A stretch of 56,689 bases of DNA from an uncultured Candidatus Saccharibacteria bacterium (GCA_964427275.1 CAYRSR010000005.1:1-56689); one strand, 5' to 3'. Positions 23,086-49,447 are shown, numbered from the stretch's first letter. Notes: generated by a model from the sequence alone, not told the origin. Numbers and translations are program-made.

Positions 23086-23200
23086 GGTTCCTGGCAAACC
23101 TTACTTTCACTCCGAAGAATTATCATCAGGGTCATGTACTTTCACTTCTCTGTTCGGAATGGAAAGAGGTGGGTCATACATGACTAAATCACCAGGAACC
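23086..23200 (-). rRNA. rrf: 5S rRNA
   Basis: Terminal stem GGTTCCTGG/CCAGGAACC; conserved CCATTCCGAAC...GAAGTGAA; directly downstream of 23S. Confidence 0.93.
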
Positions 23201-23228
23201 AAAATTATTTAAAAACCACTTAGATGTG

Positions 23229-26362
<3,134 letters not shown>

Positions 26363-26397
26363 ACATCTAAGAGGCTTTTATCTACCTTAATTTTAAC

Positions 26398-26409
26398 TTT
26401 TAAAGAACT
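26398..26409 (-). promoter_or_regulatory. boxA-like rRNA antitermination element
   Basis: AGTTCTTTAAAA in the leader, preceded by a CCCGC...GCGGG hairpin; nusB is encoded in this window. Confidence 0.5.
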
Positions 26410-26530
26410 TCTTTTCAGATATAAAAACCCGCCTTCTCAAGCTTAAGTTAACTAAGTCTATTTTGAAAGCGGGCTCTACAGCAACTAATTCAACCAAGCA
26501 CCCGCTTCAGCAAGCTTTTCTCATACTAAT

Positions 26531-26561
26531 ATTATAATAAGGAATCAAATAAAAATGTCAA
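26531..26561 (-). promoter_or_regulatory. Promoter of the 23S-5S unit
   Basis: TTGACA (26561-26556) with TATTAT at 16 bp or TATAAT at 19 bp, about 170 bp upstream of the 23S 5' end. Confidence 0.65.
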
Positions 26562-26571
26562 CCCTGTACCA

Positions 26572-26850
26572 AATTTAAAATTTAAAAATCAAAAATTAAA
26601 ATGGCAGTTAAAAATTTAAAATTGGCAAATTTCAAAATTACACCAAGCCATAGTTAAATTTAAAATGTAAATATCAAAAATCAAAATGACAATTTAAAAT
26701 TCAAAATGATTTAATGTTAAAATTTATAAATTGGTAATTGAAAATTGATTGAAAATTAGAAATTAAAAATTGAAAATGATAGATGGCAAATATCTAAAAT
26801 CTTATTAACAAATTTCACGATCGTGAAAAATGTTAATAAGAAAAATTTAG
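26572..26850. repeat. Heptamer-phased AT-rich run plus 40-bp palindrome (composite repeat copy 2)
   Basis: AAAATTY/GAAAATT-type units over 26572-26790; palindrome at 26801-26840. Confidence 0.8.
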
Positions 26851-26880
26851 CTTCAATAATGAACCAATAATTTAAAACTA

Positions 26881-27000
26881 GTATTTATCAACCATTATGG
26901 AAGTCAACCATTATGGAAGTTCAACTCCCATAATTGGGAGGAATAAACTCCCAAAAGTCAGTATTTATCAGCCATTATAGGAGTCGAACTTCCATAATGG
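26881..27000. repeat. CCATTATGGAAG direct/inverted repeat cluster
   Basis: 16-bp tandem at 26889-26920; 14-bp inverted repeat 26908-26921/26987-27000; 25-bp imperfect direct repeat at 26881 and 26961. Confidence 0.8.
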
Positions 27001-27048
27001 GATTGTCTTGAAAAGATTTGGTTTAAAAATTTGAGAGATGGATTTTGG

Positions 27049-27492
27049 TTATTTTTCCTCAGGTTCTTCTATTTTTTCTAAACGAATATCTTCATAACCT
27101 CTGCGCTTGCCAACAATTTGGTAATCAAAGCAAGCATTGGATTTACCATTATTTACTTCTTTAACCACAAAATAATTTTTATTTCTTTCAGCTATATAAA
27201 CACCATTACAATCATCTAATAAGCTAATAAAGACCATATATGGCTCTTTTTCGCTTATTGCTTCAGCAAAAATAGGATCTAATTCTATTTTGGCTGTTCC
27301 ATTTTTTAATTGACTTGAGCCAAAATCAGAAAACCAATGTTCAGTAGCCTCTTGAGAATAAAAGGCAAATCTACCAAAAGAAGTATCAGCAGCCGAAGAT
27401 TTAGAAGTAGCGTAAAAAGAACCATTGACATAGAGCTTGTAACTACCCGGATTCGTCGTCCCGATGCCGACGTTGCCGGAAGAATCAACAAC
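27049..27492 (-). pseudogene. Start-less 147-codon alternative C-terminal fibre cassette
   Basis: Open frame VVDSSGNVGIGTTNPG...EHWFSDFG...KRRGYEDIRLE bounded upstream by in-frame TAA at 27493-95; the 62-aa track ORF is only its tail. Confidence 0.8.
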
Positions 27493-28209
27493 TTAATTCT
27501 CTATGCTTTGCGTTACATTATGGAAGCTACAGACAATCTGGCCTCGCAATAATCTGAATTTCCTTCACAAGAAGAATATATAGTTCCCCCATCTACTTTC
27601 TTCCATTGCACTTTGATAGTATGTGCTCCAGCACTTAAATTTCCAACATAATGCAGATTTACATTATGCTGATCACCAGTATCCATTATTCTAACATGAG
27701 TTCGTGCAACTACTGCCCCATCAATTGTAATACGAAAATTATGCCTACCACTCTCACTTCGACATGTTACATCTGTATATAAAATTATCACATCCCCTCC
27801 AGTCCAAGTTGAGGGGATAGATATTGTCATATCAGGCACATCAGTCCAACTTGTGCTTGTAGTCGCTGCCTGTGAAGTTCTGAAAACTGATAATGCTAAC
27901 CTGGAACTCCCTGGGAGAACCTTCTCAGAAACTTTAAGATTCCCTACTACCTCCAACTTTACCCCCGGACTCGTCGTCCCGATGCCGACGTTGCCACTGC
28001 CTTTTATAACGAAAAGACTTTGTGGTGAATAGTCAGTGTTGTCCACAACTTTAAACAACTCCTTACTGTCGCTTGTATCCTCAGTATTCTCTACAATAAG
28101 TCCGTAACCATTTGCGTTTTGTTGCCTAATCCTCGCAACCCAACCAGTTATATTTTCGTAGACTGATAGCTTATTGGGTGGACTTGTCGTCCCAATGCCA
28201 ACATTACCT
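27457..28209. repeat. GC-rich GNVGIGTT-coding direct repeats, locus 1
   Basis: CGTCCCGATGCCGACGTTGCC exact at 27457-27477 and 27975-27995; degenerate copy at 28180-28209. Confidence 0.9.
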
Positions 28210-29235: not shown

Positions 29236-31632
29236 TTAAATCGTTAAAGTTAACTTTCTTTTTGGAAGTAAAGAATAAACTTTTTTATTTATTTCTATTA
29301 GTACTGGAGAAGTTTCAGATTGACTTAAAAACAAGCTAATTTTTTTCCGAGTTAGAGACAAATTAATACGTTTTCCCTGGTATGAAAAATCAAACTTTAG
29401 TTTTTGCCATTTTTGAGGAAGGCGGGGATTAATTCTTACTTTATCTTCTAGAAGCTTGACACCGGCAAAACCACGAATAACTAAATCAATTGAACCTCCC
29501 ATAGTACCGATATGAATTCCTTCTTGAGTAGTTCCCTGTTGGATATCACAAATATCTGAACTTAAAACTTTTTGAAACCAATCCCAGCTCTGTTTTGGTT
29601 GATTTAAAATAATGGAGATAAAACCATGAACTATTGGACTTAAAGTTGAGCCATGGCTGGTTCTCTTCAAATAATAATTATAATTTTTTCTCAACAATTT
29701 CAGATTAAAGTAATAACCTAGTCGTTTAAATAATTCGATTATCTCATCTAAGGGTAAAAGATAGAAAATCATTAATGCGTCAGCCTGTTTGATAATTTTA
29801 TACTCATCCGGAGATTTCCCTTCTGCTTTCAAAATTCTATCCATTCTCTGAATGTTTCCATATTTCCGCCGATATCTGGCTAGATTTAACTCTTTTAATT
29901 TGAAATAACCATCAAATTGAGAAATAATTCCATCTTTATTTATTATTAGCTTCATTTTCCTGCTAATCTCATCCCATTTTTTAAGTTCTGATTCAGTTAA
30001 ATTTAATTTATCTAAAATTCTTTTTCTAGCTGATGGAGGTAAAATTTCTAGAACTTTTTCAGCTTTAATTAAAGTCCAGGCAATCATTAAGTTAGTATAC
30101 GCATTATCCTTTAAGCCCGGAGTTTTTGAGTCTGGATATTTTTCATGAAATTCATCCGGTCCCATCACTTTTCTAGTATGATACCGCTTATCTTTTGAAT
30201 CATAATAAACTAAACTTGCTGCAAACCTAGCTATAGAAAGTAGCATTTCGGCACCATAATTTACCAAAAAGTCCAAATCAGCAGTTCGATTCCAGTGCTG
30301 CCAAACGTTATAGGCAATGGCAAAGGAAACATGTCTCTGATATCTACTATAATCTGGACCCCACCTTCCTGAAATTGGATTAAGATGCCAGGGTTGAGTT
30401 CTTTCCTCTCCAGTAGAACCACTATTCCAGGGAAACATTGCCCCACGATAGCCATTTTCTCTGGCATATTTTCTGGCCGCATCTAAACGTCGGTATCTAT
30501 ATAAAAGCAAAGCTTTAGCAACTTCAGGGAGATTGAAATCATAAAACGGTAAGGCAAAAATCTCGTCCCAAAATATTAATCCCCGATAAGATTCTCCATG
30601 TAATCCCCTAGCTGGCAGTCCTGCATCAATGTTTTTATTATGAATTGATGCTGTTTGAAGAAGATGAAATATATGCAATCGAATCACTTTCTGAGAAAAA
30701 TTGTCTCCGACTATCTGAATATCGCACTTTTTCCACAAATCTTTCCAGGTTTCTTGATGAGATTTAAATAGTTCTGAAAATCTTTTAGTCTGCTTAACTG
30801 AATTTATTGCTGAAACAACTAGATCTTTTTCTTTATCTCTAGAAGTATAAATTGAAACAATTTTTTCAATCAGATAAGATTGCTTTGGTTTAGCCAGAAA
30901 ACTAAATTGCCGACTAACTTTTTCTGGTTGCAAAACAGAATAACTACTCTTAGCTCTAGCAGGTTGACCATTAATGTACAGCTGAGTTCTAGCTGCTTCA
31001 GCAATAACAATTTTTGAATTTTTAGTAATCATAGCCAGATACATTCCATTCTTTTCAAATTTTCCAAATTTAAAAGGTAAAAGATGTTTAGAATTTAGCT
31101 GACGATATCTTTCCACTCCAGTATTTTCCACACTACCATCCAAGGTTGAATTCACAGTTATCACCTGCTCATAATTCTGAGGAATAATCTCATAACTAAT
31201 TGCACCAAGATGAGGGTATTTCATATGAACAATTCTTTTAATATTAATATCAGTTATCTGATTATACTTATCTTTCAATCTGAGTTCCCAGTTAAGAAAT
31301 CCTTCTTTAAAATTTAAAGTTTGATTAAATTTTAATGTTTTGGTATTTAATAAGTTAATCCAATCTCCGGTTCCAATTTTAAACTCTAATTTAATCCAGT
31401 TAGGACAATTAACCATAGATTCATTAATTATGGTCCTGCCGGCAATCTTAGTAGAAAGTTCATTATAAACTCCAGCCAAGTAAGTTCCTGGATAATGAAT
31501 ATCAGAAGCATCGGCTTCGCAAAGTGCTCCACGAGTAGCAAAATAGCCATTCCCCAAAACACAAAGAGCTTCTCTTAACTTCTGTTTTTTTGGATTAAAA
31601 CTTTTATAAACCAAACTCCAGGTAGAACTCAT
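29236..31632 (-). CDS. GH65 disaccharide phosphorylase (trehalose/trehalose-6-phosphate phosphorylase-like)
   Basis: LGNGYFATRG, RGLHGESYRG..FWDE, catalytic GPDEFHE, KQAD and HGSTLS motifs. Confidence 0.9.
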   Translation of the reverse strand: MSSTWSLVYKSFNPKKQKLREALCVLGNGYFATRGALCEADASDIHYPGTYLAGVYNELSTKIAGRTIINESMVNCPNWIKLEFKIGTGDWINLLNTKTLKFNQTLNFKEGFLNWELRLKDKYNQITDINIKRIVHMKYPHLGAISYEIIPQNYEQVITVNSTLDGSVENTGVERYRQLNSKHLLPFKFGKFEKNGMYLAMITKNSKIVIAEAARTQLYINGQPARAKSSYSVLQPEKVSRQFSFLAKPKQSYLIEKIVSIYTSRDKEKDLVVSAINSVKQTKRFSELFKSHQETWKDLWKKCDIQIVGDNFSQKVIRLHIFHLLQTASIHNKNIDAGLPARGLHGESYRGLIFWDEIFALPFYDFNLPEVAKALLLYRYRRLDAARKYARENGYRGAMFPWNSGSTGEERTQPWHLNPISGRWGPDYSRYQRHVSFAIAYNVWQHWNRTADLDFLVNYGAEMLLSIARFAASLVYYDSKDKRYHTRKVMGPDEFHEKYPDSKTPGLKDNAYTNLMIAWTLIKAEKVLEILPPSARKRILDKLNLTESELKKWDEISRKMKLIINKDGIISQFDGYFKLKELNLARYRRKYGNIQRMDRILKAEGKSPDEYKIIKQADALMIFYLLPLDEIIELFKRLGYYFNLKLLRKNYNYYLKRTSHGSTLSPIVHGFISIILNQPKQSWDWFQKVLSSDICDIQQGTTQEGIHIGTMGGSIDLVIRGFAGVKLLEDKVRINPRLPQKWQKLKFDFSYQGKRINLSLTRKKISLFLSQSETSPVLIEINKKVYSLLPKRKLTLTI

Positions 31633-33194
31633 AACAACTTTTGAAACAATTCTTGAACCTGCTTAGGAGATGAAACTCTAAAATCTGCTGCCGAAGCTCT
31701 TGGTTTTTCTGAGACTAAAATTCCAGTTCCCCTGGTTCTGATTATTCTAAAAGCGTCTTCATCAGTAACATCGTCACCAACATAGATTACACTAAAGTCT
31801 CTAAAAGATATATTTAAAGTGGACATAATCCACTTAATTGCTTTTCCTTTGTTCCAATCAACATTTGGTAAAAGCTCAAAAACTTTTTTCCCCGACATTA
31901 ATCTTAAACCAGGATTGGTTTTAACTATATTTTTAACTATATCTCCAATTATATCTAGATATTTTTCTTGCTTCACCAATCGATAATGAATCGCCAAACT
32001 AAACTTTTTTTCTTCAATTATTAAGCCAGGAATACCCAACAATTCAGATTTAAGACCTTTAGCTAGTTTAGAAATTGTTGGAGCTATTTTTTCAGCCGAT
32101 GGATGAATCATAGATAAGTCTCTTCCTTTAATGTCAAATCCATGACTTCCAGCATAAAAAATACCAGGAATTTTTACCAGGTTTTCTACATCTTTTCTTT
32201 CTCTGCCACTTACTATTGCAACTACATAATGCTTGGATAACTCTTTTAATGTATCTCTCATTGACTCCGATAGCAAAGCCAGTTCCGGTCGACTAACTAT
32301 TGGAGTCAAAGTTCCATCATAATCCAGGAAAAAAACCGGCTTTCGATTATTTAAAGCTAACTTAAAACTTCGCTCGTAGCTTGAATTTACTAAAATTTTA
32401 TCAACTAAAAGATTTCCTAAATCTCTTGGTTTTTCCCAGAATTTAAACAGGTCAGCCGGTTTTAAGTTAAACCAACTTTTAATCCAGGCTACATTAATAT
32501 CTGACAGGTCAGTTACGACAATATCAGCTCCACAGTTCAGTAATTCTGACTGATTATTTTCCCTGGCCACTCCTATCACCAATCCAAAACCGCCGTTTCT
32601 GCCGGCTTCTACTCCGGAGGAGCTATCCTCTACAACTGCTAATTCAGCTGGGGCTATTCCCAGGTTATTTGCTGCAGTGACAAAAATATCCGATTCAGGT
32701 TTACCTTTAAGATTAAGTTTAGAAGAAACTAATCCATCTACTATTGTAGAAAATAAATCAGTAATTCCCAAGCTTTCTAAAATAAAACTGCCGTTTTTAG
32801 AAGAAGTAGCCAGTCCAACTTTTAAATTGTTCCTCTTAAGCTGGTTAATAAAATCAATCGAAGAGGGAAAAACTTCAGCACCTTCAGTTTGAATTATTCT
32901 TCTAAATAAAACATTTTTACGATTTCCAATTCCACAAATCGTTTCCTTGTCAGGGTCATCTTGAGAAGTTCCATAAGGAAGTCTTATACCTCTGGAATTT
33001 AAAAAACTTTTTACACCCTCATATCTTGGCTTACCATCTACGTAATCCAAATAATCCTTTTTTGTAAATGGCCTGAATGGTAAATTTAATTTTTTCAAAT
33101 AATCTTCAAAAGTTGATTTCCAGGCTCGAAAGTGAACTGAAGCAGTTTTGGTAATTACTCCATCTAGGTCAAAGATTACTCCCTTAAAATTCAT
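31629..33194 (-). CDS. Bifunctional HAD: beta-phosphoglucomutase-like plus trehalose-6-phosphate phosphatase
   Basis: N-terminal FDLDGVIT, GKPESD and VVEDS; C-terminal LDYDGTLTP, VSGR, GSHG and GDDVTDEDAF (OtsB type). Confidence 0.9.
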   Translation of the reverse strand: MNFKGVIFDLDGVITKTASVHFRAWKSTFEDYLKKLNLPFRPFTKKDYLDYVDGKPRYEGVKSFLNSRGIRLPYGTSQDDPDKETICGIGNRKNVLFRRIIQTEGAEVFPSSIDFINQLKRNNLKVGLATSSKNGSFILESLGITDLFSTIVDGLVSSKLNLKGKPESDIFVTAANNLGIAPAELAVVEDSSSGVEAGRNGGFGLVIGVARENNQSELLNCGADIVVTDLSDINVAWIKSWFNLKPADLFKFWEKPRDLGNLLVDKILVNSSYERSFKLALNNRKPVFFLDYDGTLTPIVSRPELALLSESMRDTLKELSKHYVVAIVSGRERKDVENLVKIPGIFYAGSHGFDIKGRDLSMIHPSAEKIAPTISKLAKGLKSELLGIPGLIIEEKKFSLAIHYRLVKQEKYLDIIGDIVKNIVKTNPGLRLMSGKKVFELLPNVDWNKGKAIKWIMSTLNISFRDFSVIYVGDDVTDEDAFRIIRTRGTGILVSEKPRASAADFRVSSPKQVQELFQKLL

Positions 33195-36378: not shown

Positions 36379-36410
36379 GAAAAAGAAAAAGGTGCGGTTT
36401 CCCGCACCTC
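36379..36410 (-). terminator. Rho-independent terminator after pafA-like gene
   Basis: AGGTGCGG-TTTC-CCGCACCT stem followed by a U-tract on the - strand. Confidence 0.8.
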
Positions 36411-36413
36411 ATT

Positions 36414-37742
36414 TTAATCAATTTCTTTAATTGACTCAATTAATTTTTCAAGTTGCTGGTTTTTTGTTTCAAGAGGTTTCAAACTAATTGTCTTATCTAG
36501 TGCACGCCTACGCAAAAATCCCACACAGGCTATTTGATTCCAATCAATAAAAATCACTTGCTTAACTCTAGGATGCTTCAGAATTGTCTTAATTAGTTTA
36601 GCTCTTAGCTTGGCTCGAGTATTAGATGGAGGATTTTTTTCAGCTCTGCTAATTTCAGCATCAATAACCAATCTTCTAATTTTCCCCTGGTTAAGTAACT
36701 TATAATAGATCCCTAATTCAGGATTTAGGAGATGATACAGCCAGGCTAAATTTCGAACCTCTTTACTCCCTAAGCTCAGTCCTCTTTTGGCCTGGTAAGT
36801 TCGAATTAGTTTCTGTTTAATACACCAATCAAGTTCAGTTCCACACAACTCTGGATCAGCAGATAATTTTCTAAGTTTATCTTCCCATTCAATCATCACT
36901 ATCTTTTGCTCTTTAGTTGGTCGAGCTACCTGCTTAAAAAATATCCTAGCTTGATTGTAGTACCATTCCTGTAGATTGATTGCAGTAAATCTTTTTTTAT
37001 TACTCAATCTCACCGTTTTCTTACATTTCGGGTCACTGGAAATTTTCCAGATTGCCCTAACTGGCTTTTGCAAGCTCGGAACTTTCTTCAAAAACCTAGC
37101 TTCAATCATTTGCAAAACAATATCAGTAGTACCAAACTTTAAAAAAGTAGAAACATCAGCTAAGTTCGCATCACCCAGAATCAAATGAAGGCGTCCTGCT
37201 TTTTTAGTGTTAATAATTGCTCTTTGTGCAGTAGTACAATCACCAGTCACCTGGGTAATAAAAGCTGCTCTCTGAGAAATGTGATACTCAAATCTACCAC
37301 CAATTCTCTCAATATTGCCAGCACCGCATAAGATCTGCCGACTTACTAGAAATGGAACTAAACATTTCACCAAATACCAGAACTCAGATGCATACTCCCA
37401 CAAAAATTGAGGCAGAATAGAATAATTTTCGTGAGCTCCAGAGGTGGAATCATCATTTCTGCTACTCTTCAGTATCTGAGCTACTCGTCCTATCTTTTTA
37501 AGCACAATTCTATCACCAGCTCGGTCATAAACTAGTAAATCTCTGATAGTTGCACATTCTGGAGTTGCATATTCTACCAAATCTCGATCCAGGTACAATC
37601 TAGCTCCATTTAGAATGAACTGGCAAACTATTTCTGGATCATCCTTGATAATCTGAACATATTTTGGTGTGTTACCTAAAATTTTTTGTTCTTCCTTTTC
37701 AACTATCCGGTACTCACTTTCTAATCCAAAAATTCTTTTCAT
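36414..37742 (-). CDS. pafA: PafA-like Pup/UBact ligase (divergent)
   Basis: RIFGLESE, NGARLYLD, EYATPEC, DRAG, HENY, SQRA, RLHLILGDAN; no Dop-type loop. Confidence 0.7.
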   Translation of the reverse strand: MKRIFGLESEYRIVEKEEQKILGNTPKYVQIIKDDPEIVCQFILNGARLYLDRDLVEYATPECATIRDLLVYDRAGDRIVLKKIGRVAQILKSSRNDDSTSGAHENYSILPQFLWEYASEFWYLVKCLVPFLVSRQILCGAGNIERIGGRFEYHISQRAAFITQVTGDCTTAQRAIINTKKAGRLHLILGDANLADVSTFLKFGTTDIVLQMIEARFLKKVPSLQKPVRAIWKISSDPKCKKTVRLSNKKRFTAINLQEWYYNQARIFFKQVARPTKEQKIVMIEWEDKLRKLSADPELCGTELDWCIKQKLIRTYQAKRGLSLGSKEVRNLAWLYHLLNPELGIYYKLLNQGKIRRLVIDAEISRAEKNPPSNTRAKLRAKLIKTILKHPRVKQVIFIDWNQIACVGFLRRRALDKTISLKPLETKNQQLEKLIESIKEID

Positions 37743-37801
37743 TTAAATCACCTCCGATTTTGCTAATAAACCATATACTTAAGCTTCAAATAGCCGTGTT
37801 T

Positions 37802-37829
37802 ATACTAACATTTTTTTAAAATAAGTCAA
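37802..37829 (-). promoter_or_regulatory. Promoter of pafA-like gene
   Basis: TTGACT, 16 bp, TAGTAT with upstream TG; GGAGGTGA Shine-Dalgarno before the ATG. Confidence 0.55.
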
Positions 37830-37835
37830 GTAAAG

Positions 37836-37864
37836 TAAAAACCCCGCTAGTTCCTAGCGGGGTT
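37836..37864 (-). terminator. Terminator after pup-like gene
   Basis: AACCCCGCTAG-TTC-CTAGCGGGGTT plus U-tract on the - strand. Confidence 0.85.
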
Positions 37865-37875
37865 AATTTGAAGTA

Positions 37876-38064
37876 TTATTGCCCCTCTTTTTTATCTCTA
37901 TTGCGATATTGCTTTTCTTTAACCTCTTTCACTATCTTATCAATTTCGTCTATATCATCATCTTTCAAAAAATCCTCGTCAAGGGGCTCAAATGGTTTAA
38001 CTGGCTGCTCATGGGGAGGTCTTTCTTCTCTCTTTTGACCATTCAATTTTAAAATTTTAGTCAT
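37876..38064 (-). CDS. Pup/UBact-like small modifier protein (62 aa, C-terminal EGQ)
   Basis: AGGAGG SD before ATG 38064; charged, disorder-prone; DDDIDEIDKIVKE resembles the Pup helix; ends in GQ; inside the proteasome operon. Confidence 0.75.
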   Translation of the reverse strand: MTKILKLNGQKREERPPHEQPVKPFEPLDEDFLKDDDIDEIDKIVKEVKEKQYRNRDKKEGQ

Positions 38065-38068
38065 AATT

Positions 38069-38746
38069 TTACCTCCTCTGAAATTTTTTATCTCTGCTTT
38101 GAATCCCCACCTCAAACCTGATTTCTTGACCTTCCGGAGTTAAAACCTTTTTAAGAATATCAATAGCAGTTTCAATGTCCAGTTCCTCAAATCTTCGATC
38201 AGCCAGATGCTGCTTAATTTTCTGTTCCAGGCTTGAATAAGTCTCATCAGTTCCAGCTAAAACAGCATAAGAACTCTCTATCTGAGTCAATATCCCACTG
38301 GGAGAAACCACAAATATCTTATCCTGCTCTGGAGTTGAATTAACTTCAGCTAGTAAAAACTTTACACAAATAGGGAATCTTTTTGGGTCAATATAAATTT
38401 TCCGAATTAAGCTCCCTAGTACTAAAGCTAAACTGTCAACATGGACATCTTCTTCAGAATACTGAAGAACATGAGTGCTAACCAGCTTAACTGCAATATC
38501 CTGAATTCCCTCCAGACCAGGAATTCTTACTGAACCAACTCCTTTAAAATCAGTAAATTCACCAATTCCTCCAAATACAATCTTGGAAGATACTGGCCAA
38601 ATTTTTTTTCTAGTGCCGGCACTTTCAGTTACCAGTACTAATCCATCTCTGGTTGAAGCTGCTACAATTGGTCTTGATTTACTCAGTTTTTCTCGAATAA
38701 GCTCATCTTTTTGAATTAGCACTTCTCTTAAATTATAGCTGAACAT
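38069..38746 (-). CDS. prcA: 20S proteasome alpha subunit
   Basis: Aligns by eye with actinobacterial PrcA (KIVFGGIGEFTDF, VKFLLAEV, VLAGT, FEVG, FQRR); SD-supported start at 38746. Confidence 0.8.
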   Translation of the reverse strand: MFSYNLREVLIQKDELIREKLSKSRPIVAASTRDGLVLVTESAGTRKKIWPVSSKIVFGGIGEFTDFKGVGSVRIPGLEGIQDIAVKLVSTHVLQYSEEDVHVDSLALVLGSLIRKIYIDPKRFPICVKFLLAEVNSTPEQDKIFVVSPSGILTQIESSYAVLAGTDETYSSLEQKIKQHLADRRFEELDIETAIDILKKVLTPEGQEIRFEVGIQSRDKKFQRR

Positions 38747-39434
38747 TTTTATCACCCTCCTCAATTTTGCTTATTTTTTCTGAATCAATTTCAACTATCT
38801 CATCCTCGATGATATAAACCAGCTTTACTTTTCCAGTCTGAGGGTTTCTCTGATAAGCTAAATTTAAAGCAGCTACTGCAATCTTTACTGCCTGAAATTT
38901 GGATAATTCCTCATTCCAGTTGCTATCCAGATAAGTTAAAGCCTGTTGACTACCGCTACCAACTGCTAAATATTTCACTTCATATCTTGCTCCAAGATAA
39001 TCGTAACCATAAATCTTATTTCTAGACGCATAAATAGGCAGGACTACTATACCGGCAGAAGCTAATGGAGCAAACTTAGCCAGAATTCTAGAAACTAAGT
39101 TAGCCTTTCCTTCAAAGGACAACCGGTGAGTCTGAGTTCGATTGTAAATATCAACCTCAGCTCTAAGAAATCTGATTAACTCCATAGCTGGAGCTACACT
39201 ACCAGCTACTGCAATTACACTATCTTCATCAATCTTAAACAGTTTCTTAAAGTTCTCCGAGCCAATAAGAGTTGGGTTAAAACACATTCGGCAATCTCCA
39301 GCTACTACTACACCATTCTTATATTTCAGAGCTAAAATAGTAGTTCCATGTAAAATATCCCGTTCTTTAACTGACTGTTTACTCAAGCCAGCAAAGCTTC
39401 TCACATATTCCTGGATTTCCTTTTCTAATTTCAT
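38733..39434 (-). CDS. prcB: 20S proteasome beta subunit with propeptide
   Basis: HG|TTILALKY cleavage site with Thr1, AGDCR, K33-equivalent, AVGSGS; SD-supported start at 39434. Confidence 0.9.
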   Translation of the reverse strand: MKLEKEIQEYVRSFAGLSKQSVKERDILHGTTILALKYKNGVVVAGDCRMCFNPTLIGSENFKKLFKIDEDSVIAVAGSVAPAMELIRFLRAEVDIYNRTQTHRLSFEGKANLVSRILAKFAPLASAGIVVLPIYASRNKIYGYDYLGARYEVKYLAVGSGSQQALTYLDSNWNEELSKFQAVKIAVAALNLAYQRNPQTGKVKLVYIIEDEIVEIDSEKISKIEEGDKNVQL

Positions 39435-39439
39435 TTTTT

Positions 39440-40915
39440 TCACCTCCTTAATTCCTGAATTTTTTTCCAAAATTCAGTTTCCTTTTCTTTTCCAACTAGA
39501 GGATTCATTAAATAAATTAACCGATAGTCTCCTATACTTAACCCGCTACTAGCTAAACTTTCCCGATTAAAGCGATACTCAATAATCTCCCAATCCTTTA
39601 CCATCTCTGAAGCATATCCAGCTACCTTTCCTCTAAGATAAGCCCGAGTATTCTCTGGAGGATAAACCATTCGCTGCCTGATTAAGTCTTCACTAACTAT
39701 TTGCTTTATTTTTCCACGCTTTTCTAAAATTAAGTAGAGTCCCTTTTCAGGATTTAGATCATGGTAAGCAATGTCTATTGCTTTCAGTTTACCGCTATTC
39801 AGAGATAGATTATTTCTCTGTCCTATTCTTTTCAGTAAGTATTTTTTGGTTATCCAGTCTAGATACCCAACTAGTGAATCTGGTTGTTTTAACTGATTCA
39901 ATATAAACTGCCAGTGAGCCAAAATTTCTTTTTCTTCCTGGCTAAAGTTACCATACTCTCTAGCTTTATTCAGGTACCAATACTGAATATCCAGAGCAGA
40001 AACCTCTCGTCCGTTTATCGTGCCAATCTTAGCTGCAAAATTTCGAGAAACTTGTTTAATAGCCTTAACCGGATCAATTATTTTCGGAGCTTCTTTGATA
40101 AAGTCATCTTCTAGCATTGACAGAACTATACTGGTAGTTCCAACTCGAAGATATAAACTCCAATCACATAGATTAGCATCTCCTAAAATCAGATGTAACC
40201 TGGCAAACTTTTCTGGATCAGCATGGGGCTCATCTCTAGTATTGATGATATTCCTGTTCGAGGTGGTTGAAGATCCGATAACCCGAGTAATAAAGTCAGC
40301 TCTTTGAGAAACCTGGTAAATTGATTTCATTTTCTCAAAGATATTTCCTCTTTCAATTCCAATCTTCCCAGCTCCACATAAAATCTGACGACTCACTAAA
40401 AATGGAATTAACTTCTTCTGAAAATCTGAATCCATCATTAACCGATTAAAAGCACTCCTTTTTAAAAGATAGTTCTCATGAGAACCCCAGGAGGCACCCT
40501 GTCGATTAGAATTATCTTTCAACACGATTATTCTTTCATTCAATATCTGAGAAACTTTCTCGGCTGCTTTTTGAACCAGCAAGTTTCCAGCTTTGTCTGC
40601 AGCAATCAAATCCTCAACAGTTGCACACTCTGGAGTAGAATACTCCAGATGAGGATAATCTACATAAATTCTAGCTCCGTTTGGCAAAAATAAGCTTCCT
40701 TCTTTAATCTCCTCTTTCCTTCTATTCAACTCTCTTTCTGCTTGAGAAGTTGAGCCTTCCCACTTAAGCTTCTGGTTAGCGCCAATTCTGAAAAAATCCC
40801 GAATCACTTTGAGAAATAAATTGAACTCCTTAATATCAGCCCCCTTATCAGTTCCTTTTTTCTGAGGAACTATTATCGACCATTCAGTTTCAATTCCAAA
40901 AACTCTTTTAATCAT
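39440..40915 (-). CDS. dop: Dop-like deamidase/depupylase
   Basis: RVFGIETE, Trp-containing loop, NGARIYVD, GASWGSHENY, INTRDEPHAD, RLHLILGDAN; SD-supported start at 40915. Confidence 0.8.
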   Translation of the reverse strand: MIKRVFGIETEWSIIVPQKKGTDKGADIKEFNLFLKVIRDFFRIGANQKLKWEGSTSQAERELNRRKEEIKEGSLFLPNGARIYVDYPHLEYSTPECATVEDLIAADKAGNLLVQKAAEKVSQILNERIIVLKDNSNRQGASWGSHENYLLKRSAFNRLMMDSDFQKKLIPFLVSRQILCGAGKIGIERGNIFEKMKSIYQVSQRADFITRVIGSSTTSNRNIINTRDEPHADPEKFARLHLILGDANLCDWSLYLRVGTTSIVLSMLEDDFIKEAPKIIDPVKAIKQVSRNFAAKIGTINGREVSALDIQYWYLNKAREYGNFSQEEKEILAHWQFILNQLKQPDSLVGYLDWITKKYLLKRIGQRNNLSLNSGKLKAIDIAYHDLNPEKGLYLILEKRGKIKQIVSEDLIRQRMVYPPENTRAYLRGKVAGYASEMVKDWEIIEYRFNRESLASSGLSIGDYRLIYLMNPLVGKEKETEFWKKIQELRR

Positions 40916-40968
40916 CTCGAACACCTCCATTCTTTTCTAATCAAAAAGTTTTCAAGTAACCAGCTTAA

Positions 40969-40996
40969 ATAGTACCACTTGTTTTAATTTTGTCAA
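40969..40996 (-). promoter_or_regulatory. Promoter of dop-prcB-prcA-pup
   Basis: TTGACA, 16 bp, TACTAT with extended TG. Confidence 0.6.
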
Positions 40997-41005
40997 GCCT
41001 TAAAA

Positions 41006-41038
41006 CTAAAAATCCCGCCACTTGAACATGGCGGGATT
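41006..41038 (-). terminator. Terminator after arc
   Basis: AATCCCGCCA...TGGCGGGATT 10-bp stem plus U-tract on the - strand. Confidence 0.85.
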
Positions 41039-41049
41039 AATTTTAAAAA

Positions 41050-42816
41050 TTATACTACACCTTCAGTAATATCCTTTGTTTGAAGCTTACCTTTAATTTT
41101 TTTAATCCTTTTTTCTTCAATCAAACTTTTTACCTTAACTGGAGTCTTGCCAGGACGAAATACAAACTCCTGTTTTAAAGCATGAATGTCAACAAGGTGC
41201 TTATTTTCCTGATATAACTCGGTAATAACTTCAATTAGTTCCTCAGGGTTAATTTCTGGATCAACTTCCGGCCTGGCTCCCTGTTTCACCCAGCGTCTTA
41301 TTGCATTAGCTTTTAGCCTATCAACAATTGCCTTAATCAAGCTTCCAGAAATGAAATCTCGAAAGTATAGCTTCTCTTTCGAACCATCATTGTAGGTAAC
41401 CTCCATGAATTCAGTATCTTCAGTTTTACTGAAAATAAACTTAGCTGCTTTTGTTGCCATCTGGTCAATAGTTTTTCTGATACTCTGGTTCTCTGGTCCT
41501 TTAATAGGTAAGTCAGGAGTAAGATAGATCTTAAATATCTCTTTTATTCCCTGTTTATCTGGTCTTCCAATCTCCATCTTAAGTTCTAGTCTTCCTTCAC
41601 GAATAACTGCAGGGTCAATCATATCCGGCCGGTTAGTTGCTCCAAGAATTAAGATATTGGAAGTATCACCCATACCATCTACCAGAGCATTAAACTGAGA
41701 AACATAATCAATGTTTACATCAGAACTCTTTCTTAATCCCCTGGTAGAAAGAAAGGCTTCAATTTCATCAAAAAATAGCACTACCGGAAATCCTTGTTTG
41801 CTCTTTTCTTTTGCTTGCTTAAACAATTCTCTAAGCATTCTCTCTGTTTCTCCAACCCATTTTGATTGAAGTTGAGGCCCGGCTATGTATAAAAAGTATC
41901 CTTTATAGTCTGTTCTTCCTAGCTTTCTAGCAAACAATTTACTGAGATAATTGGCTAAAGCTTTTCCAATTAGAGTCTTTCCACAGCCAGGAGGACCAAC
42001 CAACAGTCCACCTTTCACTGCAGGAAGCTTTAACCTTTTAAATTTTTCCCGATAAACTATTGGCCATACAAAACTTCGTTTAATTTTTTCAATCTGCTTC
42101 TTTAACCCACCAATCTGTTCAAAAGTAACCTCTGGAACTTTTTCCAGTTCTAACTCGGATAATTCTTGCTCAGTCTTTTTTACCTTTTCCAGCACCAGAT
42201 TGTAGTTGGGATCAAAGCGAACTTTGTCTCCAGCCTTAATTTTCCCTTCCAGATCAGGAATCAAGTAGGCTACTTTAGTTCCCATATGGTCTCCAATCAG
42301 CACTCTTTTTTTATCCAAAACCTGTCGAACCACAGAGACCATTCCTTCAGATAAAATATCCTCACCAGTTGCCTGAATAATATTCATTTGTTGGTTAAGC
42401 AGAACTTCCTGTCCAGGCCTGAGCCTTTGAAATAATCCCGAGTCAGCTGTATTAACCACAAAACACTGTCCACTGCATTTTACAGCTACTTTTTGATTAG
42501 CAAGTTTTTTAATTACTCTTCCAATGCGCCATGGAACTTCAGCTAAACGCTGATATTTCTCTCTAAGTAGCTTGTACATAGCAATCAATTGTGCCAGCTG
42601 AGCATCTTTTTCGCTAACTTCTCTTTTTAGAGATTCAATTTTAGCTCTGGCTTGATTCAGCTGCTGTTCGAAATATCGCCTTATTTCTTCAATTTCCTTC
42701 TGGTACTTTTCTTGCTGTTGTTTCAGTATCCTTCTCCACCTGGCTTCTAACCTGGCTTTAATTTCTTTCAGCTTTCTCTCCAAAGCTTTCTTTTCTTGAT
42801 TTAACTTTTCTTTCAT
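41050..42816 (-). CDS. arc: Proteasome-associated AAA+ ATPase (ARC/Mpa family)
   Basis: Long N-terminal coiled coil, OB-like segments, GPPGCGKT, FFDEIE, ATNRPDMIDPA; SD-supported start at 42816. Confidence 0.88.
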   Translation of the reverse strand: MKEKLNQEKKALERKLKEIKARLEARWRRILKQQQEKYQKEIEEIRRYFEQQLNQARAKIESLKREVSEKDAQLAQLIAMYKLLREKYQRLAEVPWRIGRVIKKLANQKVAVKCSGQCFVVNTADSGLFQRLRPGQEVLLNQQMNIIQATGEDILSEGMVSVVRQVLDKKRVLIGDHMGTKVAYLIPDLEGKIKAGDKVRFDPNYNLVLEKVKKTEQELSELELEKVPEVTFEQIGGLKKQIEKIKRSFVWPIVYREKFKRLKLPAVKGGLLVGPPGCGKTLIGKALANYLSKLFARKLGRTDYKGYFLYIAGPQLQSKWVGETERMLRELFKQAKEKSKQGFPVVLFFDEIEAFLSTRGLRKSSDVNIDYVSQFNALVDGMGDTSNILILGATNRPDMIDPAVIREGRLELKMEIGRPDKQGIKEIFKIYLTPDLPIKGPENQSIRKTIDQMATKAAKFIFSKTEDTEFMEVTYNDGSKEKLYFRDFISGSLIKAIVDRLKANAIRRWVKQGARPEVDPEINPEELIEVITELYQENKHLVDIHALKQEFVFRPGKTPVKVKSLIEEKRIKKIKGKLQTKDITEGVV

Positions 42817-42922
42817 TTCCACCTCCTATTCTTTATCCAATATTTAAAAGTTAATGAACAACCAAGCTTAAGATAATAGAAAAATTTTATTTTGTCAACC
42901 CCCTGCATTGAAATAAACTTAT

Positions 42923-43495
42923 GTGCTAAAATTAATTTTGATGATTGAAGCTGGAGACTTAGAAAAAGGATTAATCATAAAAGTTGATAAGCAGCTATTT
43001 AAGGTTTTGGATTATGAATTTATGAAAATGGGAAGAGGAATTGCCCATGTCAAGGCAAGTTTAAAAAATTTAAAAACCGGGAACATAATCAAAAAAACCT
43101 TTCGTTCAACTGAAAGATTGGAAGAAGTTGAGTTATCTTACCAGTCAGCAACTTTTCTTTATAAAGATAGGAAATCAGCAGTATTTTTAAGAGATGGCAA
43201 AAGAATATCCTTTCCATTAGAAGAAATCGGTGATAAAGTTTACTACTTGACTGAAAGATTAGAAGTAAAAATAATTTACCTTGATGAAACACCTTATTCC
43301 ATTGAATTACCGATAAAAGTTGACCTCAAAGTAATTGATACTCCCCCTTACATTAAAGGAGCTACAGTAGCTTCTAACACTAAGTTAGCAACTTTAGAAA
43401 CCGGATTAAAGGTAAAAGTTCCAATGTTTATTAAGCCAGGTGATGTTATTAGGGTAAATACTGAAACCGGTGAATATACTGAAAGAATAAAATGA
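42923..43495 (+). CDS. efp: Elongation factor P (start probably ATG 42941)
   Basis: KMGRG loop, KLATLETG, VPMFIKPGD, VNTETGEY. Confidence 0.95.
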   Translation: MLKLILMIEAGDLEKGLIIKVDKQLFKVLDYEFMKMGRGIAHVKASLKNLKTGNIIKKTFRSTERLEEVELSYQSATFLYKDRKSAVFLRDGKRISFPLEEIGDKVYYLTERLEVKIIYLDETPYSIELPIKVDLKVIDTPPYIKGATVASNTKLATLETGLKVKVPMFIKPGDVIRVNTETGEYTERIK

Positions 43496-43511
43496 CTAAA
43501 AATACCTTGGT

Positions 43512-44705
43512 TTGGAAGTTTCAGAAACAATGAGTGATATAAGTATCTGGAAAAAGAAAATAGAGCTAGCCAAACAGAGTTTAAGGCCAGACGATGCCTG
43601 GATAATTTACACCGCTGAACAAAAAGACCAGACTTTTGAGCTTTTTGGTTTACAACCGGTAGCCGCAACGGTGCTTATAATTTCTAAAAAGCTTACTTAC
43701 CTAATTTGTGGTAAACTTGATTTTTCAAATGTTCCAAATATTTTTGATAAATCTGAATTTTGGGCTGAAAGCGAAGAATTTAAGAAAAAATTTTTCCAGG
43801 CCATTCAGCAAATAAATCCAAGAAATATATTTTTAAATTATAGTAAGAGTGATATTCAAGCAGATTTTCTTGGACATGGGAGCTACTTAAATTTAATCCG
43901 ATTGATTAGAAAATCAAAAGTAAGAGCCAAAATCAATTCAGCTCTACACTTAATTTACAGGTTATTCAACAAGAAAACACCTGAAGAAATAAAAAGAATA
44001 AGCAAGGCAGCAAAAATTAGCCACCAGATAATTTTAAAGGCATTTTCCCAATTAAAGACCGGAATGACCGAAATTGATATTTATAACTTAATTCATAAAT
44101 TGGTTGAAAACTATCCAGAAAAACTGGAATTTGCCTGGGCTGAATCTATGTGCCCAATTGTACTCATTGGCAAAAGAATTGGAAAAACCGAAAATGCCCA
44201 CAGTAAGCCAACCAGAACTAGATTAAAACCTGGAAATATGATTTATGTTGATTTTGGCCTGAGATACAAAGGATATGGTTCTGACATTCAGAGAGCAGCT
44301 TATATGTTGAAACCAAAAGAGAATTTTCCTCCAGCTGAAATCCAGAGAAGATTTGATACTACAATCAAGTCCATAAATGCGGCAGCTAAAGCTTTAGTTC
44401 CTAAAAAAACCGGCAAAGAAGTTGATCTGGTAGCCAGGAAAGTGATTATAGATACAGGATATCCTGAATATGAGCATGGCACCGGGCATCCAATTGGTAA
44501 ATTTGCCCACTCCCCAGGACCTTCACTCAGTAAACATTCAAAAAAAGCAAATATTGAGATAGAAGAAGGATATGTATTTACCATTGAACCAAGAATCACT
44601 TTACCGAATGGATGCTCTATAGAGGAAGATGTAATAGTAACCAAAAATGGAGCAAAGTTTTTATCTCCCAGACAAACTAAGCTTTTTTTAATTAAAGCTA
44701 GTTAA
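43512..44705 (+). CDS. M24 Xaa-Pro aminopeptidase (start probably ATG 43530)
   Basis: YVDFG, YGSDIQR, HGTGHPIG, FTIEP and SIEED metal-ligand motifs; adjacent to efp. Confidence 0.88.
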   Translation: MEVSETMSDISIWKKKIELAKQSLRPDDAWIIYTAEQKDQTFELFGLQPVAATVLIISKKLTYLICGKLDFSNVPNIFDKSEFWAESEEFKKKFFQAIQQINPRNIFLNYSKSDIQADFLGHGSYLNLIRLIRKSKVRAKINSALHLIYRLFNKKTPEEIKRISKAAKISHQIILKAFSQLKTGMTEIDIYNLIHKLVENYPEKLEFAWAESMCPIVLIGKRIGKTENAHSKPTRTRLKPGNMIYVDFGLRYKGYGSDIQRAAYMLKPKENFPPAEIQRRFDTTIKSINAAAKALVPKKTGKEVDLVARKVIIDTGYPEYEHGTGHPIGKFAHSPGPSLSKHSKKANIEIEEGYVFTIEPRITLPNGCSIEEDVIVTKNGAKFLSPRQTKLFLIKAS

Positions 44706-46396: not shown

Positions 46397-46398
46397 TG

Positions 46399-46778
46399 TG
46401 GTGTGGCAGGTAATAAGCCGGATTCTGTATCTCGATGGCAATTCATCTGGGCTCTGGATTACTCCAGAGCTCAAGCGGCACCCCCAATACCACTCCAATT
46501 CAAAGCAATACCGGGTACGGCCTTACACTCGGGTAAGAATTTAGCCGTTTCACCTTAATAATTTCTCATTAAGCTTGTCCCAGAGGGACATCTAAATTCT
46601 CACGAATTTAGACGTCTCTGTTCGCATCTCTCGGCCTGATAAAAGATATCAAGCCGGGTGGGTGTTACCCACTACCCTGCTCTCCATTTAAACCTAACCG
46701 GTTTAAATGAAGGAGTGTCCGGACTTTCCTCCCTGCCTCAAAAATTTGAGACAGAGCTGCCATCTTCCTGCCACACCA
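46399..46778 (-). ncRNA. rnpB: RNase P RNA
   Basis: GAGGAAAGTCCGG and ACAGAATCCGGCTTAT conserved regions; P1 stem pairing 46399-46410 with 46767-46778. Confidence 0.95.
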
Positions 46779-48082: not shown

Positions 48083-48847
48083 TTACCGTACTTCAGAAAA
48101 AATAAAAATTAATCTTTGTTTTAATTCAGGAATAATTTTTCGGTAATTAGAAGGCAAAAATTTTACTAAATCAAGATAAATTTTCTTTTCTGGATAATTT
48201 TTGATTTTTTCCAAGAAAAACTTCTTGTGGAATTCTAAATTTACTGTTTTTAGTTTTTTTTTCAAAAGTTTTTTGTTTATTAAAACTCCTTTATCTAAAA
48301 GATACCACAAATCAAAAATATCTCTTCCTTTTCCTCGCCAAAGAAAAGCCCTGATTTTTTCAACTAAAATTTCTTCTTCTTTTTGGCAGGAAACCAAAGA
48401 GAAAAAATTAACCGGAAATTTTGTTTTTAAAGAAAGAATGTTTGGCTCAAGAAAAGTTCTCTCTAAAGAAAAATCCAACCTTATTGTTTGAGGAAATTTT
48501 AAGAACTTACTTTCATATTTTAACCTAAATCTTAATGAGTTTTTTCCCCGATAAATAAAACTTAAACTTGATTCTGGAACTTCAATTTGAAATTTTTTTA
48601 TTATCTCTTTTAAAAAGTTTTTAATTTTCTTTTCAGAAAGAGTGGTTGAAAAGTCCAAATCTTCTGAAAACCTTGGAGATTTATAAAATAAATGAAGGCA
48701 AGTCCCTCCTTTAAAATAAATTTTCTCAGCCAACTTTTCTTTGTAAAGATAATTTAAAAACAAAATCTGGAGATACTCCCGAAATATAGTAAACCTGTCA
48801 ATCTTAAAATACTGGGAAAGTTGTTCTAACTGGGTTTTACTTATCAT
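48083..48847 (-). CDS. abiEii: AbiEii-type nucleotidyltransferase toxin (type IV TA)
   Basis: IYFKGGT, RFSEDLDFS, EKIRA, RDIFDL. Confidence 0.9.
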   Translation of the reverse strand: MISKTQLEQLSQYFKIDRFTIFREYLQILFLNYLYKEKLAEKIYFKGGTCLHLFYKSPRFSEDLDFSTTLSEKKIKNFLKEIIKKFQIEVPESSLSFIYRGKNSLRFRLKYESKFLKFPQTIRLDFSLERTFLEPNILSLKTKFPVNFFSLVSCQKEEEILVEKIRAFLWRGKGRDIFDLWYLLDKGVLINKKLLKKKLKTVNLEFHKKFFLEKIKNYPEKKIYLDLVKFLPSNYRKIIPELKQRLIFIFSEVR

Positions 48848-48850
48848 AAT

Positions 48851-49447
48851 TTATAAAAACTTTTTCAATTTTTCTTGCTTGGTTTCTTTTAAAAGAGAAA
48901 AAAACTTCTTTTTATTTATCAAACTTAGGTCAAAATCATCTTTTTCAAATCTTCTCAATCCCTTTGAACAAAAATAAAGATAATCAAAAAACGCTTTTTC
49001 TTTAGAGGCAATTAAAAATTTTTCTTTTTTTTCATAATCAAAAAACAATTTGGGTTTGATATGAGAATAAAAAAATTCTTTATCGAGTGTTTTTATGATT
49101 TTTGTTTTTTTAAGAGTGACTGAAGTAACTTGATAAGGAAACTGGGTAATAATTCCATAAAAAGACAAAGCTGATTCTAAAGAAATATAAGAAGGAGAAT
49201 ATAAAAAATTGGCAATTTGAAAATCATCGCTTTCTGAAAAAACAAAGAGATATTTCTTTTTAATCAATCTTTTTAAAATTCCTTTTTTGGTTAATCTTTC
49301 TAAAATTTTAGAGGCGGTATTTTCTTTTTTAATCTGAAAAAATTTTTTAAAATCAGAAAAAGTAAAAAGAGAAATTCCTTCTTCCTTTAGTTTTTTAATA
49401 ATTATTGTTTGAGATAACGATTCCTTCATCAGTATAATATTATACAA
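48851..49447 (-). CDS. abiEi: AbiEi-type antitoxin / transcriptional regulator (start probably ATG 49429)
   Basis: wHTH-like N-terminus, PSYISLESALSFYG, ASKEKAFFD; immediately upstream of abiEii. Confidence 0.85.
   Translation of the reverse strand: MYNIILMKESLSQTIIIKKLKEEGISLFTFSDFKKFFQIKKENTASKILERLTKKGILKRLIKKKYLFVFSESDDFQIANFLYSPSYISLESALSFYGIITQFPYQVTSVTLKKTKIIKTLDKEFFYSHIKPKLFFDYEKKEKFLIASKEKAFFDYLYFCSKGLRRFEKDDFDLSLINKKKFFSLLKETKQEKLKKFL

Follow-up and report, generated by a model that had tools for sequence, protein, structure and literature searches.

Six genes of the Pup-proteasome type on one contig

The window analyzed here is a contig of 56,689 nucleotides (GCA_964427275.1, CAYRSR010000005.1:1-56689) deposited under the name of an uncultured Candidatus Saccharibacteria bacterium, and its minus strand carries six co-oriented genes of the Pup-proteasome type, all with intact frames, running from arc/mpa to a pafA-like gene (42816-36414). 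An earlier note on this DNA had described the gene set as complete, and all six families were indeed matched at these positions on the minus strand. The first gene, arc/mpa (41050-42816; 588 aa), was assigned by Pfam and NCBIfam matches. It is followed by a dop-like deamidase/depupylase gene (39440-40915; 491 aa) with a Pup_ligase match and an insert resembling the Dop loop, by prcB encoding the 20S beta subunit (38733-39434; 233 aa; Pfam Proteasome), whose start is that of an independent gene call on a second contig, and by prcA encoding a very divergent 20S alpha subunit (38069-38746; 225 aa), recognized by the 20S_bact_alpha model and by alignment with the Rhodococcus alpha subunit. The gene of a Pup-like modifier, hereafter the tag (37876-38064; 62 aa), was assigned by its ribosome-binding site, by synteny and by a profile comparison with Pup, and the cluster closes with a pafA-like gene, a second Pup_ligase paralogue without the Dop loop (36414-37742; 442 aa). 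The start of dop is most likely the ATG at 40915, which follows a GGAGGTG, and not 40930. The same organism is represented by a further, independent ENA contig of 10.3 kb (our handle L001), on which the genes are identical and the gene call likewise predicts the 62-aa product. The description of all components as divergent agrees with the NCBIfam scores of the system, every one of which fell below the equivalog cut-off.

By sequence kinship we assign the contig to the Patescibacteria, as a genome of Paceibacteria type within the Candidate Phyla Radiation (CPR), in agreement with the CPR origin proposed before. A fused rpoB-rpoC open reading frame (ORF) of 2214 aa (13234-19878, minus strand) encodes a protein 58-64% identical to equally fused proteins of Liptonbacteria, Ryanbacteria, Paceibacterota, Minisyncoccia and 'Patescibacteria group' genomes. 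Hundreds of fused RpoBC matches of 2240-2290 aa came from Paceibacteria-type CPR genomes; one is labelled Anaplasmataceae and is probably a mis-binned metagenome-assembled genome. The closest relatives of the Dop-like protein (46-54% identity) are named 'Patescibacteria group bacterium', and the G+C content of the cluster (0.35-0.37) is near the ~0.33 typical for the remaining contig.

A fixed gene order in a small clade

The order dop-prcB-prcA-tag was found in seven independent loci besides the window (L002, L005, L006 and L087-L090) and in L091, and two fragments (L094/L095) show prcA-tag-pafA. Every clade locus reaching that far has arc upstream and pafA downstream. The order arc-dop-prcB-prcA-tag-pafA is thus fixed in a small CPR clade. 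The position of the modifier after prcA (ORF 38064-37876), pointed out earlier for the window, is therefore correct but is shared beyond this contig. Clade loci have dop directly next to prcB, with a gap of 5 nt in the window, whereas all ~50 Actinomycetota-type and Nitrospira comparators in which a simple ORF screen found a Pup or UBact gene have it between these two genes.

Among the matches listed, Dop identity drops past about ten 90%-identity clusters to 38-41%, in Actinomycetota, Rokubacteria and Nitrospira, and identity to any non-CPR homologue is at most ~41-43%; the next-best Dop matches outside the clade are those of Actinomycetota. A metagenome scan with a clade-specific alignment of the Dop N-terminus returned only 3 loci in 241 million records. 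A search of genome contigs with a single Dop protein gave no matches, and the genome-contig search with a Dop alignment gave Actinomycetota, Rokubacteria and Nitrospira loci and no CPR genome among the matches listed.

In one branch of the clade, that of GCA_002402995.1 and a JGI contig, two to three pafA-like paralogues in place of a single one follow the tag gene in tandem (L002, 13423-16603; L091, 5342-9358). GCA_027718005.1 ('Patescibacteria group bacterium AH-259-L07') holds two loci on separate contigs, L005 and L006, each spanning at least dop to pafA and cut by a contig end, with tags that differ (...KQGE and ...EGGE); this means either that a single cell holds two systems or that two organisms were assembled together. 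Outside the clade, three loci of Rokubacteria (L032, L040, L045) and one of Nitrospirota (L079) read arc-dop-prcB(-prcA)-pafA with dop abutting prcB, and the fetched loci contain no small ORF on the gene strand ending in G-[QE]. The tag of these four must be encoded elsewhere or be of a different look.

The tag is probably a distant Pup-type protein

The ATG of the tag gene lies 7 nt downstream of a GGAGG. The window tag has a Lys/Glu/Pro-rich N-terminal half, a helix-type motif (DIDEIDKIVKEV) and the C-terminus ...DKKEGQ, and 11 of its 62 residues are lysines. An ORF occupies the same place in the eight other independent loci, ending in G-[QE] in seven of them and in Asn-Glu in one. Together with L091, a close relative of L002, the nine independent loci gave a set of ten clade tags. 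These are 50-69 aa long and 27-39% identical to the window tag in the tag alignment, and they share the Lys/Glu/Pro-rich first half and an amphipathic stretch of the type [DE]x[LIM]D[ED][IL]. A strong Shine-Dalgarno sequence precedes each of the nine tag genes inspected for signals, and a terminator lies downstream of all ten. The terminal residue is always Gln or Glu (4 Gln, 6 Glu) and the penultimate one is Gly in nine of ten, so that the tags end in [EQG]-G-[QE] or N-E; eight carry G-[QE] instead of GG-[QE]. Alternation of Gln and Glu at the last residue is a hallmark of Pup, and the Gln forms need deamidation by Dop before ligation (PMC8223512).

A word-indexed search found nothing beyond the 62-aa tag itself, and its relatives came to light by way of the genes next to it and of a single exhaustive phmmer run. 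The phmmer run against 1.84 billion representatives gave a single relative of 61 aa (44% identity, E 2.5e-5) that ends in KKEGE and is flanked by a prcA-like 3' end on one side and by a terminator and a pafA-like start on the other. When eight clade tags were compared with the Pfam and NCBIfam models of Pup and UBact (PF05639, TIGR03687, PF20513, NF033388) at E <= 10, only chance matches were obtained; as positive controls, an actinobacterial Pup scored 4e-21 and 3e-21 and a Nitrospira UBact 4e-20 and 4e-22 on their own models. Profile comparison with hhalign aligned the ten tags with 15 Pups over 40 columns, from the DEID motif to the last residue (P 8.7e-6, probability 83%). In Pup, a small disordered protein, the helices that bind the ligase and Mpa lie in the C-terminal half (LLDEIDxVLE...GG[QE]). 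The real score was 30.2, as compared with 8.1 ± 1.8 (maximum 15) for 200 column shuffles of the Pup alignment and 19 for the reversed alignment. The same profile showed no similarity to UBact (E 0.19), and with the absence of any UBact model match at E <= 10 this ruled out UBact membership. The system had been announced as 'Pup/UBact-type', a label of which the Pup-like half holds by profile comparison and the UBact half does not. We conclude that the 62-aa protein is a putative, distant Pup-type tag, not a UBact, and lies outside both curated families.

Two Pup_ligase paralogues with Dop-like and PafA-like features

The Pfam Pup_ligase model scored 422 bits with the dop product and 330 bits with the pafA-like product. 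For the first paralogue the NCBIfam Dop model outscored that of PafA (361 versus 337 bits), and the Dop structure 4B0R was matched at E 3e-85. The Dop loop has been defined as a segment of roughly 40 residues with a Trp of the WDYEV type (PMC9556782). At this position the first paralogue carries an insert of ~45 residues that aligns with the actinobacterial loop and conserves the Trp (KLKWEGS versus VKWDYEE), and the second paralogue has no such insert. Residues beside the catalytic Asp also discriminate Dop from PafA (Hecht et al., PMC7947786); the first paralogue reads YVD...EYS, the Dop type, and the second paralogue of the window YLD...EYA, the PafA type.

We further compared the paralogues with loop-free hidden Markov models (HMMs), one for 14 Pup-type Dops and one for 14 PafAs, made after removal of the loop columns. 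The window dop product scored 44 bits higher on the Dop HMM than on the PafA HMM, and all first paralogues of the clade favored Dop by 27-51 bits. The pafA-like product favored PafA by 26 bits, as did most second paralogues of the clade by 6-26 bits, while its NCBIfam scores were 266.2 bits for PafA and 264.5 for Dop. It retains the GhExE motif, the catalytic Asp, HENY and RLH. Because profile scores and discriminating residues point, if weakly, in this direction, the CPR paralogues are likely orthologous to Dop and PafA.

The ATPase and the 20S subunits

Arc has a coiled-coil N-terminus of ~100 residues and the Pfam domains Prot_ATP_ID_OB_N, Prot_ATP_ID_OB_C and AAA, and its translation shows Walker A, Walker B and pore-loop motifs. 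The best NCBIfam model was pup_AAA (391 bits, under the cut-off of 505), and the best solved relatives were the Mpa structures 5KWA and 7PX9 of Mycobacterium tuberculosis (E ~1e-87, residues 50-541).

PrcB matched Pfam Proteasome with 124 bits and aligned to Rhodococcus PrcB at E 9e-22. It has a propeptide of ~30 aa with the cleavage site HG/TT, and Thr1, Asp17, Lys33, Ser129 and Thr169 are present; Gly-1/Thr1, Asp17 and Lys33 are kept in all eight clade PrcBs. The prcA gene overlaps the prcB stop codon by 14 nt. Its product scored 28 bits with Pfam Proteasome and 47 bits (E 2e-12) with NCBIfam 20S_bact_alpha, and in the alignment with the Rhodococcus alpha subunit (E 3.5e-6) the Lys of the activator pocket was retained.

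Three transcription units

Three terminators, each consisting of a hairpin and a T-run on the gene strand and lying at most ~12 nt from a stop codon, punctuate the cluster. The terminator after arc (41011-41038) has an 11-bp stem and a T-run, that after the tag gene (37840-37864) an 11-bp stem, and that after pafA (36389-36410) a 9-bp stem. Promoter-like sites on the same minus strand precede arc (42870-42898, TTGACA-17-TATCTT, a consensus match only), dop (40969-40996, TTGACA-16-TGnTACTAT) and pafA (37802-37829, TTGACT-16-TGnTAGTAT), all three found by consensus scan. The genes dop, prcB, prcA and tag are tightly packed: dop and prcB lie 5 nt apart, prcB and prcA overlap by 14 nt, and 4 nt separate prcA from the tag gene. 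The terminator scan yielded 10 terminator-like sites versus 4.7 ± 2.1 in shuffles, a count that alone is weak evidence. The terminator hairpin is kept in all eight arc-dop gaps examined, a terminator stands 3' of the modifier gene in every related locus, and in all related loci inspected the arc-dop and tag-pafA gaps both show a hairpin and T-run followed by a TTGACA-type site. Because the same terminator-promoter pairs recur in related loci, the layout of three predicted units, arc, dop-prcB-prcA-tag and pafA, is confirmed as real and conserved and not due to chance.

These are the units that the earlier note had drawn and described as split regulation. The split is real. In mycobacteria mpa, dop, pup-prcBA and pafA also lie in separate transcription units, and split regulation is therefore no departure. 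With the tag gene last in the dop-prcBA unit, supply of the tag would be tied to the depupylase and the protease, and the ligase would be regulated alone.

A probable degradative tagging system and its alternatives

Taken together, we consider it probable that the six genes encode a working degradative tagging system, a complete and strongly divergent Pup-proteasome of a small Patescibacteria clade. The 62-aa protein would be a disordered Pup-type tag ending in Gly-Gln. The Dop-like enzyme would convert the terminal Gln to Glu and later remove the tag from substrates for recycling, while the PafA-like enzyme without the loop would phosphorylate the Glu side chain of the tag and ligate it to substrate lysines. 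A hexamer of Arc is expected to capture the tag on its N-terminal coiled coils, unfold the substrate and thread it through the OB and AAA rings into the 20S particle, where it would be degraded by PrcA/PrcB after maturation of PrcB by cleavage between Gly-1 and Thr1. All enzymatic steps, as well as the docking of Arc to the 20S particle, are predictions by homology.

A number of observations weigh against this reading. Even at E <= 10 the curated models of Pup and UBact do not recognize the tag, whose presumed homology with Pup depends on a single profile comparison between short and charged sequences. The second Pup_ligase paralogue lacks the alpha-loop signature EHIWEGVSSATTRS, a key discriminator of PafA (Hecht et al., PMC7947786). 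In phmmer searches of the PDB both paralogues match the Dop structure sequence better than the PafA one; the preference for the Acidothermus Dop structure probably arises because the sole PafA structure is a divergent one from Corynebacterium. At residues ~178-190 the window PafA-like protein reads IINTK---------KAGRLH, where the 43 further Dop/PafA-family sequences in the comparison all read IINTRDEPHADxxxxRRLH or close variants, so that a 9-residue RDEPHAD... deletion is unique to it. The identical protein, deletion included, is encoded on the second contig. The position of PafA R193 is occupied by Lys in the window and also in L087; R193 of M. smegmatis PafA is essential, the R193A variant being inactive (PMC7947786). 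In a neighbour-joining tree, the Pup_ligase family fell into four well-supported clades, with Pup-type Dop and Pup-type PafA grouped (support 94/100, 50 bootstrap replicates) and both CPR clades left outside this group; as a distance tree with long branches and a midpoint root, it is not taken as evidence of independent duplication.

Two further points concern the passage from tagging to proteolysis. Arc of the window ends in ...DITEGVV and lacks the GQYL docking motif, and none of the seven clade Arcs has a penultimate Tyr (-GVV, -DAV, -TVI, -GLT, -TTV, -RVI, -GII). Among the comparators, ten Pup-type Arcs end in GQYL, an eleventh (L079, Nitrospirota) in GHYF, and those of Nitrospira in -HII or -QII. 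The penultimate Tyr of GQYL is a determinant of proteasome docking in mycobacteria (PMC8223512), and docking of Arc to the 20S particle, if it takes place, must by this comparison use a tail other than GQYL. The other point is Asn166 of PrcB, already noticed earlier and upheld by the alignment of RNPQTG with DDSATG of Rhodococcus. The second triad of the beta subunit comprises Ser129 and Asp166, together with Ser/Thr169. This position is Asn in five of eight clade PrcBs, Asp in the other three and Asp in all 13 non-CPR comparators, and two of the Asn166 proteins (L006, L087) have also lost Ser129. In yeast beta5 the D166N change leaves propeptide cleavage intact and lowers activity by ~60% (PMC4792962). 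The likeliest description of the window PrcB is that of a slower but functional protease.

One may ask whether tagging works but is coupled weakly, or not at all, to degradation, with a slow or gated 20S particle and non-canonical docking of Arc; the main role of the system would then be regulation by a reversible modification, or Arc would be an unfoldase working on its own. Asn166, the loss of Ser129 in L006 and L087, the reduced activity of the yeast D166N variant (PMC4792962), the lack of GQYL or a penultimate aromatic residue in any clade Arc and the retention of pupylation without a proteasome in some Actinobacteria (PMC8223512) all fit such a state. Yet prcB and prcA are kept in every locus, translationally coupled to dop and tag, despite strong genome reduction, and Thr1, Asp17, Lys33 and Gly-1 are intact, as is the conserved Lys of the alpha pocket; Nitrospira Arcs, which end in -II, also do without GQYL, so that outside Actinobacteria docking in another mode may be normal. 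On balance we regard weak coupling as unlikely. It is improbable that the small ORF downstream of prcA encodes something other than the modifier, for instance an assembly factor or regulator, with the tag encoded elsewhere or the ligase using another carboxylate. Such a reading would account for the lack of a Pup or UBact model match and for the clade member ending in Asn-Glu, and the clusters of Rokubacteria and one Nitrospirota, complete without an in-cluster G-[QE] ORF, illustrate that tags can be unlinked. It has to contend with a position, size and terminal Gln/Glu kept in 10/10 cases and a penultimate Gly kept in 9/10 despite 27-39% identity, with a similarity to Pup that is order-specific and extends to the C-terminus, and with a nearest relative in 1.84 billion representatives that again lies between prcA and pafA.

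The deletion in the PafA-like protein and the Arg to Lys change at the R193 position, where Ala inactivates the M. smegmatis enzyme, could also mean that the system is decaying in the window organism, its PafA-like gene having lost an essential loop and tagging having ceased. Six intact frames, strong ribosome-binding sites and a promoter and terminator of its own speak against decay, as do the retained GhExE, catalytic Asp, HENY and RLH, the conservative nature of the Lys, found also in L087, and the same sequence on the second contig, and we give this reading very little credence. An origin of the cluster outside CPR genomes, through mis-binning of the contig or recent transfer from Actinomycetota or Nitrospirota, would agree with the Actinomycetota as source of the next-best Dop matches outside the small clade. 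It is hardly conceivable for a single 56.7-kb contig with the fused rpoBC typical of Paceibacteria, a cluster G+C near that of the contig, identities of no more than ~41-43% to non-CPR homologues among the matches listed, and a layout shared by several Patescibacteria assemblies; mis-binning or recent transfer was ruled out by the kinship of the fused RpoBC, the G+C content and the low identity to non-CPR homologues. A bolder view is that the CPR clade represents a third, separately evolving Pup-type lineage beside Pup and UBact, with its own tag class, Tyr-free Arc docking and a ligase/depupylase pair that parted very early from the Dop and PafA lineages or was duplicated independently. We put this forward tentatively, as a possible though doubtful reading. 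If true, it would mean that pupylation was not simply born in Actinobacteria and spread by transfer, and the minimal system of the CPR clade would reveal the features of PafA, of Dop and of the second triad of the 20S particle that can be dispensed with.

Novelty and significance

Actinobacteria and Nitrospirota are the groups to which pupylation and bacterial proteasomes are usually ascribed. A 2017 paper on UBact reportedly lists some Parcubacteria-type candidate phyla as well. In one model the pathway arose in Actinobacteria and spread by gene transfer, and the known distribution listed by Hecht et al. is without CPR (PMC7947786). In the open full-text literature we found no paper tying Patescibacteria, Parcubacteria or CPR to pupylation or 20S proteasomes. 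In the databases both enzymes of a few Patescibacteria assemblies are already labelled 'PafA2 family', and the tag gene is unnamed. The class, a Pup-proteasome locus outside Actinobacteria, is already known; new are the clade-wide alternative order, a tag class missed by curated models, the lack of GQYL, Asn166 and a non-PafA alpha-loop.

Since ultra-small, presumably symbiotic Patescibacteria discard most non-essential genes, the system probably does something important for these bacteria. Retention for amino-acid recycling, as the earlier note had it, is speculation. The tag missed by models, the ATPase without GQYL, the alternation of Asp166 and Asn166 and the ligase-like enzyme without the PafA alpha-loop offer natural experiments on which features are needed.

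Other features of the window

Divergent from arc, on the plus strand, lie genes for EF-P and an M24 (Xaa-Pro-type) metallopeptidase (42923-44705), probably the common efp-pepP pairing, though one that places a peptidase gene beside the proteasome cluster; several related loci have a UbiE-type methyltransferase and UPF0102 (YraN) as upstream neighbours instead. The 23S rRNA gene (23089-26363, minus strand) matches over 3139 nt versus 2925 nt of the model, with ~200 nt of extra sequence that may be an insertion or intron. A 5S gene directly follows, no ORF of at least 90 aa occurs in the ~1.1 kb upstream of the 23S gene (26364-27512), and no 16S rRNA or tRNA gene was found in the whole 56.7-kb window. 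The RNA of a bacterial class A RNase P (119 bits) is encoded at 46398-46775 on the minus strand; in some CPR lineages the RNase P RNA is unusual or missing. Also on the minus strand, a GH65 glycoside phosphorylase gene (798 aa) and then one for a fused HAD-hydrolase/trehalose-phosphatase (521 aa) occupy 29236-33194, a pair that suggests phosphorolysis of trehalose or maltose. An AbiEii-type nucleotidyltransferase toxin of a type IV toxin-antitoxin system (104 bits; 48083-49447, minus strand) adjoins an ORF of 198 aa, which may encode the AbiEi partner.

Comparison with known systems

The closest parallel is the actinobacterial Pup-proteasome system (M. tuberculosis Rv2115c-Rv2097c), with which the window shares the six protein families. 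Both have an Arc with a coiled coil, two OB domains and an AAA domain, a Dop loop with its Trp, a second ligase-family enzyme without the loop, Thr1, Asp17 and Lys33 in the 20S particle, and arc and pafA in separate units. In both, the tag is a small charged protein that carries a helix motif of the DEID type and ends in Gly-Gln or Gly-Glu, with Gln and Glu alternating between species. The differences are that the window tag gene follows prcA, whereas the Pup gene lies between dop and prcB, and that the tag ends in E-G-Q and not G-G-Q, lacks the FVxxYVQK segment, is rich in Lys and fails PF05639 and TIGR03687. Moreover, the window Arc is without GQYL, PrcB has Asn166, the PafA-like enzyme is without the EHIWEGVSSATTRS alpha-loop signature, no adjacent pafBC is present in the window, and identities are only 20-43%.

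The window system resembles the UBact-type systems found in Nitrospirota and other Gram-negative phyla in its non-actinobacterial host and in its five enzyme and proteasome families. Both have Arcs that lack GQYL and end in two hydrophobic residues (-HII and -QII in Nitrospira; -GVV, -RVI and -GII in CPR), and in both Nitrospira and CPR the Dop and PafA profiles score the second paralogue almost alike. Unlike the CPR tag, UBact of Nitrospira is encoded between dop and prcB and is basic (...KRMRKVDPKQAERYRQRTGE); the 2017 description of UBact is said to give a basic C-terminal half ending in R-[TS]-G-[EQ]. The archaeal PAN-20S system likewise combines alpha and beta subunits with an AAA+ unfoldase carrying a coiled coil and an OB domain, and the window PrcB scores 122 bits on the archaeal beta model versus 115 on the bacterial one. 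Archaea differ in having an HbYX-tailed PAN and beta-grasp SAMP tags made by E1-like enzymes, whereas the tagging enzymes of the window belong to the Pup_ligase family of glutamine-synthetase fold and its ATPase is closest to Mpa, with 296 bits versus ~200 for the PAN models.

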